A stretch of 64,000 bases of DNA from positions 32,966-96,965 of the forward strand of contig JALOBY010000001.1 in the NCBI GenBank assembly GCA_023228045.1, written 5' to 3'. Position numbers and translations under genes: made by a program. Origin of the DNA: Endomicrobiales bacterium (GTDB lineage: Bacteria; Elusimicrobiota; Endomicrobiia; Endomicrobiales; JALOBY01). The notes below the pieces were generated by a model that saw nothing but the letters and a program-made list of their open reading frames with translations, did not search any database and was not told where the DNA came from. Of this stretch, positions 5,896-63,038 are shown one piece after another (positions within the stretch are counted from its first letter, which is position 1; each line of letters begins with the position of its first letter).

Positions 5896-6250
5896 CCTAA
5901 TATCGCGTCTCGCCTGTAGGCGGACTTAGTATTTAAACCATAGAATTTGCAATAGATTGCTAGATTCGACGGACGATGACGGTCTTTTCCTTCCTCAAAA
6001 AGCTCGCCCGATGTTCATACATCATTCTTGCTTTTTGAGTTGTAAAACCCACGACCTCGCCCGTCTCGTTCCTAACACCTATTGCAAGGTCTATGGTTGC
6101 TTCGTTCATACTTGGTTTGGCTAAGATGATTTCGCCAAACCGCTAACAATGGAAAACCTTAGGTTTTCCCGTTTCGTCGGGAGTTTACCCTGAGCTTGCC
6201 GAAGGGCTCAAGTACCCTTCCGTTCGCTGAACCCTTTCCTAAGTTGTAAC
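5896..6250 (-). repeat. L-family GC-rich multi-hairpin leader element, copy A (carries a nested X-family hairpin)
   Basis: Its 5' end (minus strand GTTACAACTTAGGAAAGGGTTCAGCGA), its hairpins GGGAAAACC/GGTTTTCC and GGTTTGGC/GCCAAACC, and its 3' module TAAGTCCGCC..GGCGAGACGCGATATTAGGAAAC match the copy at 50522-50687. Confidence 0.7.
5938..6096. repeat. X-family long imperfect hairpin, divergent copy nested in L copy A
   Basis: Terminal inverted repeats CCATAGAATTTGCAATAGA / (rc) CCATAGACCTTGCAATAGG. The arms are complementary along their whole length (both carry CTCAAAAAGC), with the apex at GATGT-TCAT-ACATC. The ends resemble the 38749 and 57141 copies (..TTGCAATAGG, ..GATTCGACGG vs GAATTCGTCAA). 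Confidence 0.6.
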
Positions 6251-9725: not shown

Positions 9726-11049
9726 CCCCTAATAAGTCATAATCTTTATATCCGTTAATTTTAACTTTCAAAAATTCACCAACACTCGCATGCCCTTTGA
9801 AAAAAACACAACCATCTATTTCTATTGATTGAAAAACAGTTCTACCTTTCCATCCCCTAACTTTTTTACCGTCAACATTTATAAACTCACACGATTCATG
9901 GGCAACTGCTTCAAAAACTTTGCCAATTAGCATGGCATTTTTTTTACTTATAACTTTTTTTTGCAACAGCATCAATTCATCTTTGCGAGCTTTTTTTGTT
10001 TTTGCACTAATTTTACCTGGTATTTTCTGTGCTTTTGCACCGTCAACATTTGAGTACTCAAAAACCCCAAGATGGTCAAACCACCCATCTTTAACTACTT
10101 TTCTAAGCTCTGCAAATTGCTCAGAAGTTTCCCCTGGCAGACCAACAATTAGTGTTGAGCGAATGAATATGCCAGGCACTTCGGATTTTATTTTTTTAAG
10201 AACACCAAGTGCACCTTTTGGGCGAAGCATAAGTTTTAGAATTTTATCACTTGTGTGCTGTAGCGGAATATCAATATACTTGCAAACTTTTTTGTTGGTG
10301 GCAATCTCTTTTAGCAACTCCTGAGTTACCGAGTTGGGAAATGCGTAAAGAACTCTAATCCAACGAATATCTTTAATTTTTGAAATTTCTTGTATAAGTT
10401 TACTTATAGCAAATGTGCCATAAATATCTTTACCATAAGCTGTTGTATCTTGCCCAATTAAAATTATTTCTTTTACGCCTTTTTTGGCAAGACGGGCGGC
10501 TTCTGCAACAAGCGACTCGATAGTTCTGCTTTTATACTTTCCCCTAAGCTTTGGAATTATGCAAAATGAACATTTATGGTTACACCCTTCGGAAACACGC
10601 AAATACGCACTTGGAAACGTCCACGAAATTGGCCTTTCAAGAGATGTTTCTAAAAGGCCTCCAGGTGCACCAACTAACAGTTTACTTTTTAGTGCTTTGC
10701 GCTCAGTGACCAGCTCTGTTATTTTATCCAAGTGGCCTGTACCAACAAAACCATCCACTTTTGGAAATCTGCCGAGCAGTTTTTCTTTTTCCGACTGGAC
10801 TAAGCAGCCACTAACAAATATTTTCTGGTTTTGTTTTTTTTGTTTGCAAACAGAAGCTATCCACTGAGCCGACTCTGTTTTTGCATCTTCAATAAAAGAA
10901 CAAGTGTGAATTATTACAATGTCTGCAGAGTCAATATCATCGATTGTAACATATCCAAACTCAAGCAACATTGCCACCATACTTTCGCCTTCAACAACAT
11001 TTTTTGGGCACCCAAGCGCAACAAAAGCAACTTTCTTATTATTTTGCAC
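9709..11049 (-). CDS. rimO: ribosomal protein S12 methylthiotransferase
   Basis: N-terminal LGCPKN, radical-SAM CNHKCSFC and a C-terminal TRAM-like domain. 446 aa. Confidence 0.85.
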   Translation of the reverse strand: MQNNKKVAFVALGCPKNVVEGESMVAMLLEFGYVTIDDIDSADIVIIHTCSFIEDAKTESAQWIASVCKQKKQNQKIFVSGCLVQSEKEKLLGRFPKVDGFVGTGHLDKITELVTERKALKSKLLVGAPGGLLETSLERPISWTFPSAYLRVSEGCNHKCSFCIIPKLRGKYKSRTIESLVAEAARLAKKGVKEIILIGQDTTAYGKDIYGTFAISKLIQEISKIKDIRWIRVLYAFPNSVTQELLKEIATNKKVCKYIDIPLQHTSDKILKLMLRPKGALGVLKKIKSEVPGIFIRSTLIVGLPGETSEQFAELRKVVKDGWFDHLGVFEYSNVDGAKAQKIPGKISAKTKKARKDELMLLQKKVISKKNAMLIGKVFEAVAHESCEFINVDGKKVRGWKGRTVFQSIEIDGCVFFKGHASVGEFLKVKINGYKDYDLLGVVINE

Positions 11050-11971
11050 CTGCGTTTATATCCTTAAGTGTTAATTCAAGCTCTCTAACTTTACCATCTA
11101 TTTTTTCCCCTTCGCTAACAAGCTCTATTTTGTGCCCGTTTAGGTAAACCTCAACTCCTGACTCATTTCCAAGTTTAAGATAAAATTTCTCATTTGCGTT
11201 AAAAAATCTTTGGGTGTCCTTGTTAATAGTCCCTTCAAACAATGCCTTTTTATCTGATATTACCCTTACCCAAGTGTTATCTAACCCTACAACTTTTAAT
11301 TGCATAGCTTTTGCAATGCCAAAACCTTGATTGAGCGAATAATTCTTTTGATTGTGCCGTTTTAAAAGTGCATTTTGCAAGTTTACTTTGATACCTTGCA
11401 CTGGGTCCAAAGGTGCTTTCTTTGTTATATTTTCCTCATTTTCTTTCGTATCAAATACTGAAATATTTTTAACTGTGTCACAAGAAGGAACACCCTCAGA
11501 AACTTGCGTTAAAGTTGATGTTGAAGTTTTAACTGATGTAAATGCATCATGGCTTAAAATTAATGGTTTCATCTTACCAAAAATAAAAAATGCAACTGGT
11601 ACACTAAGAACAAGTAATGCTGTAAGTGCAAAAATTACAATTAGTGTCATTGAACTTGATGGTTTTTTATTGTTTTGTTTTTTTTCTGAAACTATTTGCT
11701 GTTTCTTTGCTATGTTTAACTGACTTTTTTGTGCCACACTCTCTAAATTTTGAGTATATGAGTTTATTATTTCATTTGGATCTATTCCAAGAAAAAGCGC
11801 ATACCTTCTTAAAGAACCAATAAAATACACCGTAGCATGAAATTTTTCTGATTCCATGTTTTCTAATGCGTCTAATTGATAGGGCGTAATTTTAAGACGG
11901 CTATGAACCAACTCCAAGGAAAAACCCTTGGTTTCTCTTGCATTTTTAAGTTTTTTACCAAAATCTTTCAT
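11039..11971 (-). CDS. RodZ-like cytoskeleton protein (HTH + TM + C-terminal DUF4115-like domain)
   Basis: N-terminal XRE-type HTH (FGKKLKNARETKGFSLELV), a central TM segment and a C-terminal beta-rich domain (WVRVISDKK..VEVYLNGHKI). Confidence 0.6.
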   Translation of the reverse strand: MKDFGKKLKNARETKGFSLELVHSRLKITPYQLDALENMESEKFHATVYFIGSLRRYALFLGIDPNEIINSYTQNLESVAQKSQLNIAKKQQIVSEKKQNNKKPSSSMTLIVIFALTALLVLSVPVAFFIFGKMKPLILSHDAFTSVKTSTSTLTQVSEGVPSCDTVKNISVFDTKENEENITKKAPLDPVQGIKVNLQNALLKRHNQKNYSLNQGFGIAKAMQLKVVGLDNTWVRVISDKKALFEGTINKDTQRFFNANEKFYLKLGNESGVEVYLNGHKIELVSEGEKIDGKVRELELTLKDINAGAK

Positions 11972-12142
11972 GCTTCCCCCTATGTCGCATCCCCACCTTT
12001 GGCGGGACTTACTTCGTTGTTCTGGCTCGGATGGGAGTCCTCTCGCCAGAATGCTCCCCGAGGGAAACCTTGTTTCCCTTCGGCGTTCGGCTCATCCCGC
12101 CAACGGCGGGATTTGCCTCACTGAACCCTTCCCCAGTTGTAA
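11972..12142 (-). repeat. L-family multi-hairpin leader element, copy C (divergent)
   Basis: Minus strand TTACAACTGGGGAAGGGTTCAGTGAGG ... hairpins CCCGCC/GGCGGG, GGGAAAC/GTTTCCC, GGGAG/CTCCC ... TAAGTCCCGCCAAAGGTGGGGATGCGACATAGGGGGAAGC-ATG (rodZ-like start). Confidence 0.6.
11979..12030 (-). repeat. 52-nt direct repeat, gene-proximal copy (3' module of L copy C)
   Basis: cctatgtcgcatccccacctttggcgggacttacttcgttgttctggctcgg matches 12149-12200 with 3 substitutions. Confidence 0.85.
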
Positions 12143-12148
12143 AAAACA

Positions 12149-12200
12149 TCTATGTCGCATCCCCGCCTCTGGCGGGACTTACTTCGTTGTTCTGGCTCGG
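12149..12200 (-). repeat. 52-nt direct repeat, distal copy
   Basis: tctatgtcgcatccccgcctctggcgggacttacttcgttgttctggctcgg. Same register, 170 nt from the proximal copy. Confidence 0.85.
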
Positions 12201-12261
12201 TACCAACGGTTGACCACTTCATCAACCACTTCGAGTGCCCAGGGCACTCTCAAAAGAACAT

Positions 12262-12993
12262 TTACTCTGATAGGTCAATAACATCAACATCTTTAGCAGG
12301 CTTAAAAACAAAACTACTCTTCGGAATACCTGCGTTTATTTTATAATTTGAAAATTGCGTGTTTTGAGCAAACGAACTGTTCCTTACTTTAATCAAAACA
12401 GGCAAATAGCTTTTTGCATCAATTAATACATCTATAAAATAGCCATTATTTTTCTTTGATGCAAATGTTACAAGGCAAGCGTTTTCGCCAATTAAACTTT
12501 TAGCGCTAAATAAAAATTCTCTATCAAGCACATTCCAAAACTTATCCAGTGAAAATAAATCTAAAGGCAGTGGCGAATTTTTGTTCCAATTTGAAAGTTT
12601 ATCTGTAATTGCCTGTTTTTGCGATGGTGTATAAACAAACAAAGTTTTTCCATTACAATAAAAACTCTGCTCTAAATCGCCTTTTTTTTGTTTTATCACA
12701 AATTTTTCAGGCGCCAAGTAAAATACAGAGCCCACAATAGCATCTGAATTCGTGGCACTTTCGTTGCTACTAAATTGCTTAAATTCAAAAGAAACATCTT
12801 TTATTTTTGAAAGCAATACTCTTGAACTTGTAATGATTTCAGCTTCTTTAGATTGTGTAAAAAGTTTATTCTTGGCGGCTCGTGCATTATTTTCTGCGGT
12901 TAAGGTTGAATAGTTTATAAATAAAGTTACCGATACCAATAAAACAAAAAATAAGTTTTTACTCTTCATTTGGGTTGTCGCCAATGTTACCAA
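12262..12993 (-). CDS. LolA-like outer-membrane lipoprotein carrier family protein
   Basis: Signal peptide (a likely start is the MKSKNLFF Met at 12969). LolA-like beta pattern FYLAPEKFVIKQ..TLFVYTPSQKQ. Confidence 0.5.
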   Translation of the reverse strand: MVTLATTQMKSKNLFFVLLVSVTLFINYSTLTAENNARAAKNKLFTQSKEAEIITSSRVLLSKIKDVSFEFKQFSSNESATNSDAIVGSVFYLAPEKFVIKQKKGDLEQSFYCNGKTLFVYTPSQKQAITDKLSNWNKNSPLPLDLFSLDKFWNVLDREFLFSAKSLIGENACLVTFASKKNNGYFIDVLIDAKSYLPVLIKVRNSSFAQNTQFSNYKINAGIPKSSFVFKPAKDVDVIDLSE

Positions 12994-15262
12994 ATGTTTT
13001 CAGGTACTCATCAACACGCGTAAAATCTATTGACCAGCGGTTTGTGCCCTCCGGTTTATTTATAAAACCCTTCATTTCAAGTATACTTAAAATGTTTGTT
13101 GCCCGAGATGAAGAACCAAAGTGAGCCTTAAGCAAATCTTGCGAGATCCTTTTTCTTTCCTGCATAAGCTTTAGTGCGCGTACAAGCTCTTCAATTTCTT
13201 TATTATCGTTTGCATCAAAACTTGAATTTGCCGTTGCAGCACTAATAAGCACATCTTCATAAAATGGCTTAATGTTTTGACTCAAAATAAAATCAACTAC
13301 TTTGTTCGGGTCTCTTTCTGGCACATACGCGCCCTGAAGACGATCAGGCCTTGAGGCACCGGATGGCAGGAAAAGCATATCCCCACGTCCAAGTAAATCT
13401 TCAGCACCAATTGTATCCAATACAACGCGAGAATCAACCTGAGATGTTGTTTGAAATGCGATACGCGCGGGTAAATTTGATTTAATAATTCCTGTTATAA
13501 CATCTACCGACGGTCTTTGTGTGGCAAGTATAAGGTGTATACCAACTGCTCTTGCCATTTGCGCGAGCCGCTGAATTGAATCTTCAACTTCTTTTTTCTG
13601 CACAACCATAAGATCGGCAAGCTCGTCAATTATTATAACTATGTAAAACTCTTTTGACCCACCAGTCTCTGTCATTTTTTGATTATAACTTTCAATATTG
13701 CGCACCGACTCTTTTGCAAACTTTTCATAGCGTTTTTCCATAACACGCACAAGCTTTTTAAGTGCTGCAGCAGCTTCTTTTGGCTGAGTTATAATGTCAG
13801 CATCTGTGCATTTTACACTTGGGTCGTATAGGTGAGGTATGCCCCTGTAGCATGTCAGCTCAACCCGTTTTGGATCTATTAGCAAAAACTTTACTTCATC
13901 GGGTTTTGCCTTAAAAAGCATTGATAGAATTAAGCTATGAATACCAACACTTTTACCTGAACCTGTAGCACCCGCAATTAACAAATGAGGCATTATTTTA
14001 ATGTCAGTTACGGATGGGCGACCGTCGGTTGTTTTACCAAGGCCAAAAGTTAGCAAAGATTTAGAATTTTGGAAATCTTGGCTTTCAACAATCTCACGGA
14101 AACTAACTATGCAACGCTTTTCATTTGGAACCTCTACCCCAACAGCGGACTTTTCCGGCACAGCAACAATACGCACAGAAACGGCTTTCATGTTTAGCGC
14201 AATATTTTCACTAAGGCCTGAAACAGTTTCAATTTTTGTTCCCGGAGCAAGCTCCATATCATAACGCGTAACTACAGGACCAGGAATAATATCTTTAACC
14301 TTTGCGCTTATTCCAAAGTTCTCAAGCGTTTTTTCTAATATTTGGGCATTTTTTGTAAAGTCCTGTGCAGAATTGCCCGCAATCAAATCTTGCTTTACTT
14401 CAGAAAGCAAGTCAACACTTGGCAATATATAATCTGCAGCAGAACCGTTAGAAAACAACTCAAGTTCTTTTGCATCAGCTTCCGGTTTATTTTGCAAATT
14501 TTTCGGTTTTTCATCACGCTTTTTAGAAATATCATAGGTTTTTATTGTAGTTAAAATAATTCTTGGCAACTCTTTCTTTTGTAACTGTGGAATGTTTGGC
14601 AGAATCATCTGAGGAGCTTTTGTGTCTTCTTTAGAACTATGTGGCTCATTTGGAAAAAATATTTTTGGCACAGATGAGTTATTCTTTTTAAGCTCTTCTC
14701 TTGCCTCTACCCATTGATGATAATCTAACACTATGTTTTTCCAAAATGCCTCTAATACTTCCCGCATAGAAATACGCATAAGCATTGCGCCAAAATAAAC
14801 AAAAAGAATAAACAAAGCAGAAAGTGAAAGATAATAATTGTTAAGTAATATCTTGTAAAAAAACGGGCTTGCATTGCCTATCCATCCGCCAAGTTGTTCT
14901 ATATCTTTGCCAAATTTAATATCCCCAATCAAATCCAGAAAACTTGTTGCGAACAAAAGCAACAATGCCGATAGAAAGAGATCAATTCTCAAATGTAATT
15001 TAAACTCATTTTTAAGATAGACATACCCCTGCCAACAAATTAGCAAAGGAAGTAATATTGCCGCCCAGCCAAACAAGCCATTAACCACTGAGCTTATCGC
15101 ACCGCTAAAAACACCAAACTGAGCTGGAAATAAAATGCAGTATAAAATAGCAATTGAGCAAACAAGCAGAAATATACCTTTTAATTTTCCGCGGAGGGCT
15201 TCATTTATTGGTTTTGTTTTAACTTTAGACCTGTAAAAGTTCTCTCTCATAATTAAGCACAT
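12959..15262 (-). CDS. ftsK: DNA translocase FtsK
   Basis: N-terminal TM helices, Walker A GATGSGKS, IIIDELADLM and a C-terminal gamma winged-helix domain. Confidence 0.9.
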   Translation of the reverse strand: MCLIMRENFYRSKVKTKPINEALRGKLKGIFLLVCSIAILYCILFPAQFGVFSGAISSVVNGLFGWAAILLPLLICWQGYVYLKNEFKLHLRIDLFLSALLLLFATSFLDLIGDIKFGKDIEQLGGWIGNASPFFYKILLNNYYLSLSALFILFVYFGAMLMRISMREVLEAFWKNIVLDYHQWVEAREELKKNNSSVPKIFFPNEPHSSKEDTKAPQMILPNIPQLQKKELPRIILTTIKTYDISKKRDEKPKNLQNKPEADAKELELFSNGSAADYILPSVDLLSEVKQDLIAGNSAQDFTKNAQILEKTLENFGISAKVKDIIPGPVVTRYDMELAPGTKIETVSGLSENIALNMKAVSVRIVAVPEKSAVGVEVPNEKRCIVSFREIVESQDFQNSKSLLTFGLGKTTDGRPSVTDIKIMPHLLIAGATGSGKSVGIHSLILSMLFKAKPDEVKFLLIDPKRVELTCYRGIPHLYDPSVKCTDADIITQPKEAAAALKKLVRVMEKRYEKFAKESVRNIESYNQKMTETGGSKEFYIVIIIDELADLMVVQKKEVEDSIQRLAQMARAVGIHLILATQRPSVDVITGIIKSNLPARIAFQTTSQVDSRVVLDTIGAEDLLGRGDMLFLPSGASRPDRLQGAYVPERDPNKVVDFILSQNIKPFYEDVLISAATANSSFDANDNKEIEELVRALKLMQERKRISQDLLKAHFGSSSRATNILSILEMKGFINKPEGTNRWSIDFTRVDEYLKTFGNIGDNPNEE

Positions 15263-62638: not shown

Positions 62639-62674
62639 TAAAAGCAATTCTAAATCTCCCTTATAAAAAAATAA

Positions 62675-63038
62675 CTGGAGCAACCTATACACCGAATTCT
62701 GTTATACGCTTTTAAGCGCATATCAGGGCCATTTCTCTGTCGTATAGATTGCTCTATACGATCAAGCGGCTTACCTGCAGGCGGTTAAACCTGCAAACTT
62801 TGCCTTGCATCCCGGTAAGGATTTAGCCGTTTCATACCTTAAGTTACCTCAAGGCCTTTACCGCACTAGGCGGCAATCTTTTGCTTTTCAGCAAAAGCCG
62901 TTACTGTTCGCACCTCTATCCCGCTATATGCGGGACGATGGGAATTGCCCACTACCGTTTATCCCGCCTATGGCGGGATTGAAGTTCGGACTTTCCTCTT
63001 TGCGAATAAATCGCAAAGCGACCCTGCAGTTGCCCCAG
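62675..63038 (-). ncRNA. rnpB: RNase P RNA, bacterial type A
   Basis: Minus-strand reading: P1 5' CTGGGGCAAC pairs with 3' GTTGCTCCAG. It carries the universally conserved GAGGAAAGTCCG (P4 5' strand) and ACAGAATTCGGTGTA (cf. E. coli ACAGAACCCGGCUUA). GGTAAGCCGCTTGA matches E. coli GGUAGGCUGCUUGA. Several GC-clamped hairpins. About 364 nt. Confidence 0.85.

Follow-up and report, generated by a model that had tools for sequence, protein, structure and literature searches.

We report here on a 290-nt spacer in the genome of an Endomicrobiales bacterium. It lies within a stretch of 64,000 nt that was analysed as a whole and is called the window below (GenBank assembly GCA_023228045.1, contig JALOBY010000001.1, positions 32,966 to 96,965; coordinates are those of the window unless a contig is named). 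The spacer separates, on the minus strand, an open reading frame (ORF) of 243 aa for a DUF2092/LolA-like periplasmic protein (12262..12993) from the 310-aa gene rodZ (11039..11971), and a unit of 52 nt occurs in it twice. The spacer consists of an insertion of repeat elements, here called L, and the doubled unit is the 3' end of such an element. The genome to which the window belongs (1.35 Mb, 42 contigs, 99% complete) holds many further copies, and others are found across the phylum Elusimicrobiota.

The downstream gene had been called rodZ-like in the original prediction, which is borne out by two Pfam domains above their cut-offs, HTH_25 (58.3 bits) and RodZ_C (45.2 bits). The upstream ORF matches DUF2092 with 31.3 bits (cut-off 21.2), and its LolA match of 19.5 bits stays under the Pfam cut-off. 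According to the ORF list, the spacer sits within a run of minus-strand genes. Its elements fill it almost to the edges: the stop codon of the upstream ORF (12264..12262) is 1 nt from the head of the first element, and the ATG of rodZ (11971..11969) comes 9 nt past the tail of the last one, which ends at 11981, with a Shine-Dalgarno (SD)-like GGGGGA in between (SD-like motif and start codon at 11969..11980, minus strand). The G+C content is 0.52-0.60 in 100-nt windows of the spacer, compared to 0.27-0.37 in the flanks. The sense strand of the spacer folds with -119.6 kcal/mol (z -4.63 versus shuffles) and the antisense strand with -99.9 kcal/mol (z -3.23); both strands thus out-fold their shuffles, the sense strand more so than the antisense.

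A repeat search of the region returns a direct repeat of 51 nt with 96% identity and a spacing of 170 nt (11980-12030 and 12150-12200). Read on the minus strand, unit A (12200..12149) and unit B (12030..11979) are identical at 49 of 52 positions, which within 290 nt is far beyond chance. The units differ at position 32 (G/A, 12169/11999), which is in a hairpin loop, at position 36 (C/T, 12165/11995), which is in the 3' arm of the same hairpin, and at the final base, position 52 (A/G, 12149/11979). The change in the stem turns CCCGCC/GGCGGG into CCCGCC/GGTGGG, that is, a C-G pair into a G-U pair on the minus-strand RNA and into an A-C mismatch on the plus strand, and both this change and the loop change are carried by unit B. 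The two units with their three differences, one of them in the loop, had been described before and are confirmed here by the repeat search and the minus-strand comparison; the letters likewise confirm the pair change, and the fold and the coordinates confirm the two hairpins placed further upstream (12233-12249 and 12208-12227). When the 52-nt module was counted in the 1.35-Mb genome with blastn-short, this locus alone was found, with its 2 copies.

The identity of the unit becomes clear from the element to which unit B belongs. This element, E2 (11981..12149, minus strand), is a full L element by cmsearch and by the consensus structure of the seed alignment. It matches the family model with 124.6 bits (E 1.2e-37, model positions 1-164 of 164, at 11981-12137), where it should be noted that E2 is one of the 14 seed sequences of the model, so that the match is partly by construction. 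Following the minus strand, E2 consists of a head ATGTTTTTTACAAC (12149..12136), a 5' box GGGGAAGGGTTCAGTGA (12134..12118), the helix P1 with an inner hairpin (12126..12076), the helices P2 (12084..12056), P3 (12052..12019) and P4 (12008..11989), and a tail GCGACATA that ends at 11981. The original prediction had treated the 118 nt between the two units as a core in its own right, which is not borne out. This stretch runs from the head ATGTTTTTTACAAC only as far as the loop of P3; its 3' end is the 5' strand and the loop of that helix, and its TTCTGGC pairs with the GCCAGAA strand of unit B, so that P3 spans the border of the two. At rodZ this helix reads TTCTGGC/GCCAGAA, while the dominant subfamily of the genome has GGTTTGGC/GCCAAACC. 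Since the locus differs from that subfamily on both strands of P3, the core and unit B belong together, and since together they give one full-length match to the family model, the unit is the end of the element itself and not target DNA. The 52-nt unit is thus the 3' module of the element: the 3' strand of P3, a linker, P4 and the GCGACATA tail.

Unit A (12149..12200, minus strand) has the same content as unit B (11979..12030, minus strand), as shown by the repeat search together with the sequence for unit A and with the seed consensus structure for unit B. It contains a P3 3' strand (GCCAGAAC) that is without a partner, the linker, the hairpin P4 (12178..12159) and a tail GCGACATAG, and it forms the 3' module of a truncated element, E1. 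The rest of E1 is a head module of 63 nt, called H63, that makes up the first part of the spacer (12199..12261, minus strand; assigned from the fold and from copies in the genome). H63 begins with a boxA-like ATGTTCTTTTGAGAG (12261..12247), followed by the hairpins 12249..12233 and 12227..12208. Five more copies, with 86-94% identity, are present elsewhere in the genome, each followed by a full element with the conserved body and then, in most cases, by the ribosome-binding site and start codon of an unrelated gene. At rodZ, on the other hand, H63 is joined directly to unit A, and the family model matches the product weakly (12151-12256, contig C31:45116-45221, 17.8 bits, E 0.0046). Two heads and two tails are thus present at the locus. 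The tandem module duplication that the original prediction had offered as one option is supported by this arrangement of a head-plus-tail E1 and a full E2. A simple tandem duplication with a period of 170 nt was also considered, and it leaves the different heads of E1 and E2 unexplained.

L elements are a family of GC-rich, four-helix sequences of about 150 nt. The body starts with a head (ATGTTCTTTTACAAC in this genome) and the 5' box AGGAAAGGGTTCAG. P1 is a variable hairpin closed by GTTC/GARC, P2 a hairpin with a conserved stem, and P3 a helix with a variable loop; then come sometimes an extra hairpin, the terminal hairpin P4 and the tail GCGAYATA. A census of the body in this genome gives about 28 copies (33 regex matches, 5 of them chance matches inside genes). 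A pattern scan of a contig collection for the P2 motif gave 3 stretches only, from metagenome-assembled genomes of Endomicrobiales and Elusimicrobiales. E2 is an outlier in its own genome: it has 73-77% identity to copies in the related genome G004, and its nearest relative is a tmRNA-linked copy there (0.77). Two further observations concern the architecture. At about six loci a second repeated module of some 140-170 nt, starting with GGTTTTACAACTCAAAAAG and ending with a P4-like hairpin and tail of its own, lies between the L body and the gene (window 6062-6243 on the minus strand, contigs C12, C5, C6 and C30, and C31:28780); in C12 it is found on both sides of an H63-type element. Moreover, most copies in the distant genome G162, which has 15, and in others (loci L110-L129) have another conserved hairpin (CCCGCGCGATTACCTTCGTTAGTGAGCGCGGG) and a tail-like GCGATAAG before the 5' box, and the L unit may be longer there.

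The strength of the structural assignment comes from the family as a whole. A covariance model, R1, was built from the 14-sequence seed alignment, in which 18 of the 38 pairs show compensatory changes, and it yielded 76 matches from 66 sources, corresponding to 73 distinct rows. In these 73 distinct copies, which as relatives are not independent of each other, 93.5% of the cells are paired, compared to a shuffled mean of 75.6%, and changes on both sides are seen in 34 of the 38 pairs. Sliding the partners by 1-3 columns lowers the pairing to 37-52%, and none of 500 shuffles reaches any of the five measures used. G-U cells number 167, spread over 27 of the 38 pair columns, versus 57 A-C cells in 15 columns; in the terminal hairpin P4 the corresponding numbers are 21 and 0.

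These results confirm one part of a claim made in the original prediction, namely that the C-to-T change in the stem of unit B is evidence for selection on the sense strand at the level of RNA. The sense strand is indeed constrained as a single strand, as seen from the pairing in the family and from the excess of G-U over A-C. The single change proves little: a transition in a G-C pair always leaves G-U on one of the strands and A-C on the opposite one, and taken alone it is therefore weak evidence, with odds of about 1 in 2. Nor is the level of RNA settled by it, as a G-T mismatch is also tolerated in hairpins of single-stranded DNA. RNA is nevertheless the natural and favoured reading of the constraint, since every copy that could be classified has the orientation of its downstream gene.

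This gene context was classified for 100 model hits in fetched loci, only 12 of which come from the genome of the window. The largest class, 45 of the 100, has a co-oriented start codon with an SD sequence no more than 25 nt past the element. In another 24, a co-oriented tRNA or tmRNA gene starts 0-5 nt further on, and in 3 a co-oriented RNA gene starts 6-40 nt further on; 9 are followed by another element, 12 are in other contexts, 6 are partial and 1 is cut. For the 24 copies flush with tRNA or tmRNA genes (as annotated by ARAGORN), the gap is 0 nt in 11 cases, 1 nt in another 11, 2 nt in one and 5 nt in one. A tmRNA gene follows a copy in four genomes of four families (gaps of 0, 0 and 1 nt, and of 31 nt in G005), and a copy stands in front of tRNA-Trp, tRNA-His and tRNA-Gly(gcc) in two genomes each. 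In distant genomes, a tRNA gene comes after the element in 14 of 20 loci. No copy in the genome of the window adjoins a tRNA; of its 31 strong hits, 27 have a co-oriented ORF with an SD sequence within 200 nt, 19 of these within 14 nt, and the others are either cut by contig ends (two) or have no ORF that was found (two). Copies in G008 and G016 (loci L060 and L062) are followed by AGGGAGGCTACCGTAGA..., and no ORF, tRNA or Rfam match was found there.

As to the distribution, the genome of the window has 40 model matches at E <= 0.01. Within the order, matches are present in 13 of 104 genomes and in every family but f10 (0 of 89) and f9 (0 of 1), and in the phylum in 16 of 151 sampled genomes, other classes included; in this wider sample, the families f19 (0 of 11) and f20 (0 of 45) gave no match. 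The copy number among relatives goes from 1 to 27; G001, from the same family as the bacterium studied here, has a single copy, which precedes a gene other than rodZ. An Rfam 15 search of positions 11500-12800 at E <= 10 gave noise only (snoZ119 with 24.7 bits, cut-off 70; RsmY with 12.4 bits, cut-off 57), and in 15 related loci only tRNA, tmRNA and rRNA were above the cut-off. A ribozyme, a riboswitch or a known small RNA was rejected for lack of an Rfam match, and none of the papers listed in a literature search describes the L element.

The original prediction had suggested comparing the locus across related strains, and this comparison yielded three states. The alleles were read from contigs of metagenome DNA runs, compared with positions 11200-13000 of the window. 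In X2, X3 and X5 the site is empty: position 11975 is joined to 12260 with 8 letters, TTCCTCCA, in between, and on the minus strand the result, TAAAT-TGGAGGAA-AAGCATG, is a plain ribosome-binding site. The contig from X5 is 2379 nt long and covers both flanking genes, in which it differs by 29 and 54 letters. One X5 contig also has a 12-nt in-frame insertion in the upstream ORF, TTCTTTAGATTG (plus strand) at position 12843. A one-unit form is found in X2 and X3 on a 184-nt contig, with 11988 joined to 12166 and 4 letters in between; it contains the end of the upstream ORF, H63, a single unit and rodZ. The two-unit form is present in X4, where a 227-nt contig covers 12017-12195 with zero differences. 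Searches elsewhere gave no further alleles: a RodZ-based search for related loci in named genomes found no relative, and a DNA search of 40 relatives found no match to rodZ or to the upstream ORF besides the repeats.

The contig joint defines an inserted block of 284 nt (11976..12259, minus strand) that is replaced by 8 nt in related strains, and the spacer is thus a strain-specific compound insertion of L elements relative to close relatives. With an empty site or a one-unit form in related strains, the arrangement at rodZ is recent and unstable. A deletion between the two 52-nt repeats would yield the one-unit form, and recombination with another copy of the element could do the reverse. The one-unit allele has the states of unit A at both variable positions. 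We considered using this to polarise the changes in unit B and rejected it, as the position of the crossover would give the same result.

Doubling of this kind is not confined to rodZ. The last 36 nt of an element are repeated near-identically within 100 nt upstream in 11 of 67 full copies (score of at least 26 of 36), and the rodZ copy scores 32; the control, 466 cross-locus comparisons within the same genomes, has its 90th percentile at 21 and its 99th at 31. The doubled tail is therefore a trait of the family. At locus L082 (G004:C16:1461-3530), three identical-scoring copies form a tandem array with a period of 193 nt (711-1270), with a partial copy upstream and a GTPase-like ORF downstream. 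Element pairs are present in G014:C77, and contig C19 has two differing elements with identical P4. A separate observation was made at locus L097 (G011:C5, 601-877), where the 16S-23S spacer contains an L element between its tRNA-Ile and tRNA-Ala genes. Downstream of the element come a second copy of the first ~22 nt of tRNA-Ala, ~77 nt of other sequence and then the intact tRNA-Ala, 100 nt further on, which hints that an element and its downstream flank can be copied together by recombination.

The family also spreads or homogenises within genomes, since copies are closest to others of their own genome. Simple vertical inheritance was considered for the copies linked to tRNA and tmRNA, and it is unsupported by their nearest neighbours. 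As regards machinery for mobility, the 99%-complete genome of the window has 0 matches to the Y1 transposase (PF01797) and to TnpB (PF07282), for which the same searches gave matches in 6 and 8 of 14 known genomes, and 0 matches to reverse transcriptase (PF00078). The element ends read ATGTTC... and ...GCGACATA, and the 12 inverted pairs in 11700-12600 include none between the ends of the insert or between those of E2, so no terminal inverted repeats are seen there. Comparison of the filled and the empty site shows no clean short target duplication, and no duplicated flank beyond a possible AT.

A scan of the minus strand of the spacer finds no promoter-like or terminator-like site. The head could be read as a promoter with TACAAC as the -10 box, which we rejected; most copies lack the last T, and the scan finds no promoter on this strand. 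The rRNA promoters of the same genome are of the standard TTGACA-17-TAATAT type. In contig C24, two such promoters stand in tandem about 150-380 nt upstream of the start of the 16S gene (~25446), with a boxA-like AGTTCCTTGAAAACTTAAT in the leader. None of the hairpins has a run of T after it on the minus strand, and a reading as terminators was likewise discarded. Promoter-like boxes do occur shortly before a few copies in other genomes, such as TTGACT-17-TATAAT about 30 nt before the 5' box at locus L123, which fits transcription from outside the element.

On the basis of these results, we propose the following course of events. The doubled unit would represent 1.3 elements in tandem, namely E1 with its head and 3' module and E2 complete. 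The pair of units would have arisen by recombination or slippage between copies of the element, in the way of the arrays and tail repeats elsewhere, and the same repeats would make the locus unstable, with 0, 1 or 2 units in close relatives. With no signals of its own in the spacer and a run of minus-strand genes around it, the element, lacking a promoter or terminator, would be transcribed in sense within a message that extends from the upstream ORF to rodZ. Its helices would be kept by selection on the sense strand, and it would act in cis as a folded leader. A long, tightly folded untranslated gap should offer Rho little to bind, and the leader may keep the gap structured in this way, giving Rho little purchase. 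The element would also set the ribosome-binding site directly past the last hairpin, P4. In the subfamily of this genome, the boxA-like head may recruit Nus factors. RNase P makes the 5' ends of tRNA and tmRNA, and for the copies in front of such genes the 3' end of the element would coincide with the cut, so that the leader would be removed whole. The RNase P RNA gene itself (RF00010, 112.9 bits, above the cut-off) is found in the window at 62672-63037 on the minus strand (G000:C31:95637-96002). Taken as a whole, a tandem L-element insertion, with the doubled unit as its module and the element acting in cis as a folded leader, is in our judgement the probable explanation.

Several points weigh against this explanation. 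The copies cluster by genome and not by locus, with a mean identity of 0.60-0.77 within genomes versus 0.59 between them, and 0 of 14 tRNA- or tmRNA-linked copies have their nearest relative at an equivalent gene of a different genome. Such clustering agrees with a repeat that is selfish, spreading or gene-converting and has no need of a host function. As the large alignment had been fitted to the model, the pair counts lean towards structure, though the signal remains large. The allele contigs are short (184-2379 nt) and come from metagenomes, and X2, X3 and X5 are all lake-water runs, maybe of one campaign; the change may have gone from one unit to two or from two to one, as both orders fit the alleles. 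The likeness to boxA concerns mainly the subfamily of this genome. Measured against the published consensus GYTCTTTAANA (PMC5725501), the head of the prototype copy of that subfamily has 1 mismatch and that of E2 has 2, and 8 of 69 copies have at most 2 mismatches, versus 2.6% of 1516 random 30-mers. From its letters, the boxA likeness may serve as a lead for this one subfamily only. Finally, transcription, processing and the effect on rodZ are what we infer.

A bolder reading, which we hold only tentatively, is that L is a structured RNA element of a class not described so far, which either homes to the exact 5' boundary of functional RNAs or is retained there, at RNase P sites and ribosome-binding sites. 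Two scenarios would fit it: a leader of ~150 nt that is cut off whole by RNase P and persists as an abundant functional small RNA, or a mobile element whose targeting is tied to the processing of RNA 5' ends. If this is true, the doubled tail at rodZ is a snapshot of the gain and loss of copies.

The main alternative, which we consider unlikely, is a selfish repeat comparable to REP/RAYT or IS200/IS605-derived elements, with hairpins that serve its own spread as single-stranded DNA and nothing else. The strand bias would then reflect the DNA strand that is used, and the position at gene starts the places where insertions are tolerated. The clustering of copies by genome, their variable number (1 to 27 among relatives), the polymorphic insertion at rodZ and the general tolerance of G-T in DNA hairpins all agree with this. 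However, no Y1 transposase, TnpB or reverse transcriptase is found in a genome that is 99% complete, and the classifiable copies are all co-oriented with the downstream gene. In addition, 23 copies lie at most 2 nt from the 5' end of a mature tRNA or tmRNA, which is tighter than tolerance alone predicts, and different families have elements at the same kinds of site (tmRNA in four genomes of four families, tRNA-Trp, tRNA-His and tRNA-Gly(gcc) in two each).

Another option is a switch dedicated to rodZ, in which units A and B compete for the 5' strand of P3 and two folds set translation or transcription. Unit A does have an unpaired P3 3' strand, and in the minimum-free-energy fold its hairpin pairs with the region of the P1 hairpin. 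Nevertheless, no other locus of the genome has this arrangement, related strains have either an 8-nt spacer or a single unit in its place, and the family precedes many unrelated genes, all of which makes a switch very improbable. The long target duplication around a mobile 118-nt core, which the original prediction had put forward on account of the direct repeats flanking the core, and with which the one-unit allele without a core in related strains agrees, is not borne out and has hardly any probability left. Core and unit B give a single match over the full length of the family model, in which the unit corresponds to the conserved 3' end. A head of the family type stands at the start of the core, and the core breaks off in the loop of a P3 that needs unit B and has locus-specific pairing on both strands. 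The one-unit allele, finally, is equally expected from deletion between the 52-nt repeats.

Returning to the tandem insertion of L elements as the preferred explanation, the doubled 52-nt unit marks a young, unstable tandem of a repeat element and not a special device for the control of rodZ. The family is the more interesting result: a phylum-wide element of four helices maintained by compensatory changes, with up to ~30 copies in a genome of 1.35 Mb. If transcribed, it would be a 5' leader shared by stable RNAs and mRNAs alike, with a bearing on how untranslated leaders escape Rho, on the action of RNase P on long structured leaders, and on repeats in small genomes.

It is instructive to compare the L element with known systems. 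Leaders of tRNA and tmRNA precursors that are removed by RNase P are ordinarily short, unstructured and not conserved, while L is ~150 nt long, structured and repeated, and is found before protein genes as well. Compared to the boxA of rrn leaders, the head of the own-genome subfamily (TGTTCTTTTACAACTTAGG) resembles AGTTCCTTGAAAACTTAAT of its own rRNA leaders and TGTTCTTTGAAAACTTAAT of G004; unlike rrn and nut boxA leaders, however, most copies in other genomes are without GTTCTTT, and the body from P1 to P4 is without an rrn counterpart.

Among interspersed repeats, Correia/NEMIS and other MITEs (miniature inverted-repeat transposable elements) are small non-coding mobile inserts near gene starts that are co-transcribed and polymorphic between strains; L differs from them in being without terminal inverted repeats or a clean short target duplication. 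REP/BIME sequences with their RAYT, and palindromes derived from IS200/IS605, are short, GC-rich intergenic hairpins that form mosaics of 35-nt palindromes 3' of genes. L shares with these the GC-rich hairpins of the P4 type, and a strand-specific constraint on the hairpins is possible in both cases, but it is a four-helix unit of ~150 nt that lies 5' of gene starts, in a genome where no Y1 transposase or TnpB was found. The BOX elements of Streptococcus pneumoniae are interspersed, modular intergenic repeats with a variable number of modules, which are co-transcribed and form stable hairpins in RNA. The likeness of L to BOX is one of architecture, and in architecture the nearest known systems would be the modular interspersed repeats BOX, REP/BIME and Correia. 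L is not known to have a sequence relation to BOX and, unlike it, is always co-oriented with the downstream gene, ends flush with an SD sequence or with the 5' end of a mature tRNA or tmRNA, and is spread over a whole phylum with its helices kept by compensatory change. It is the phylum-wide spread, the compensatory upkeep and the flush ends at tRNA and tmRNA genes that are new in this family.

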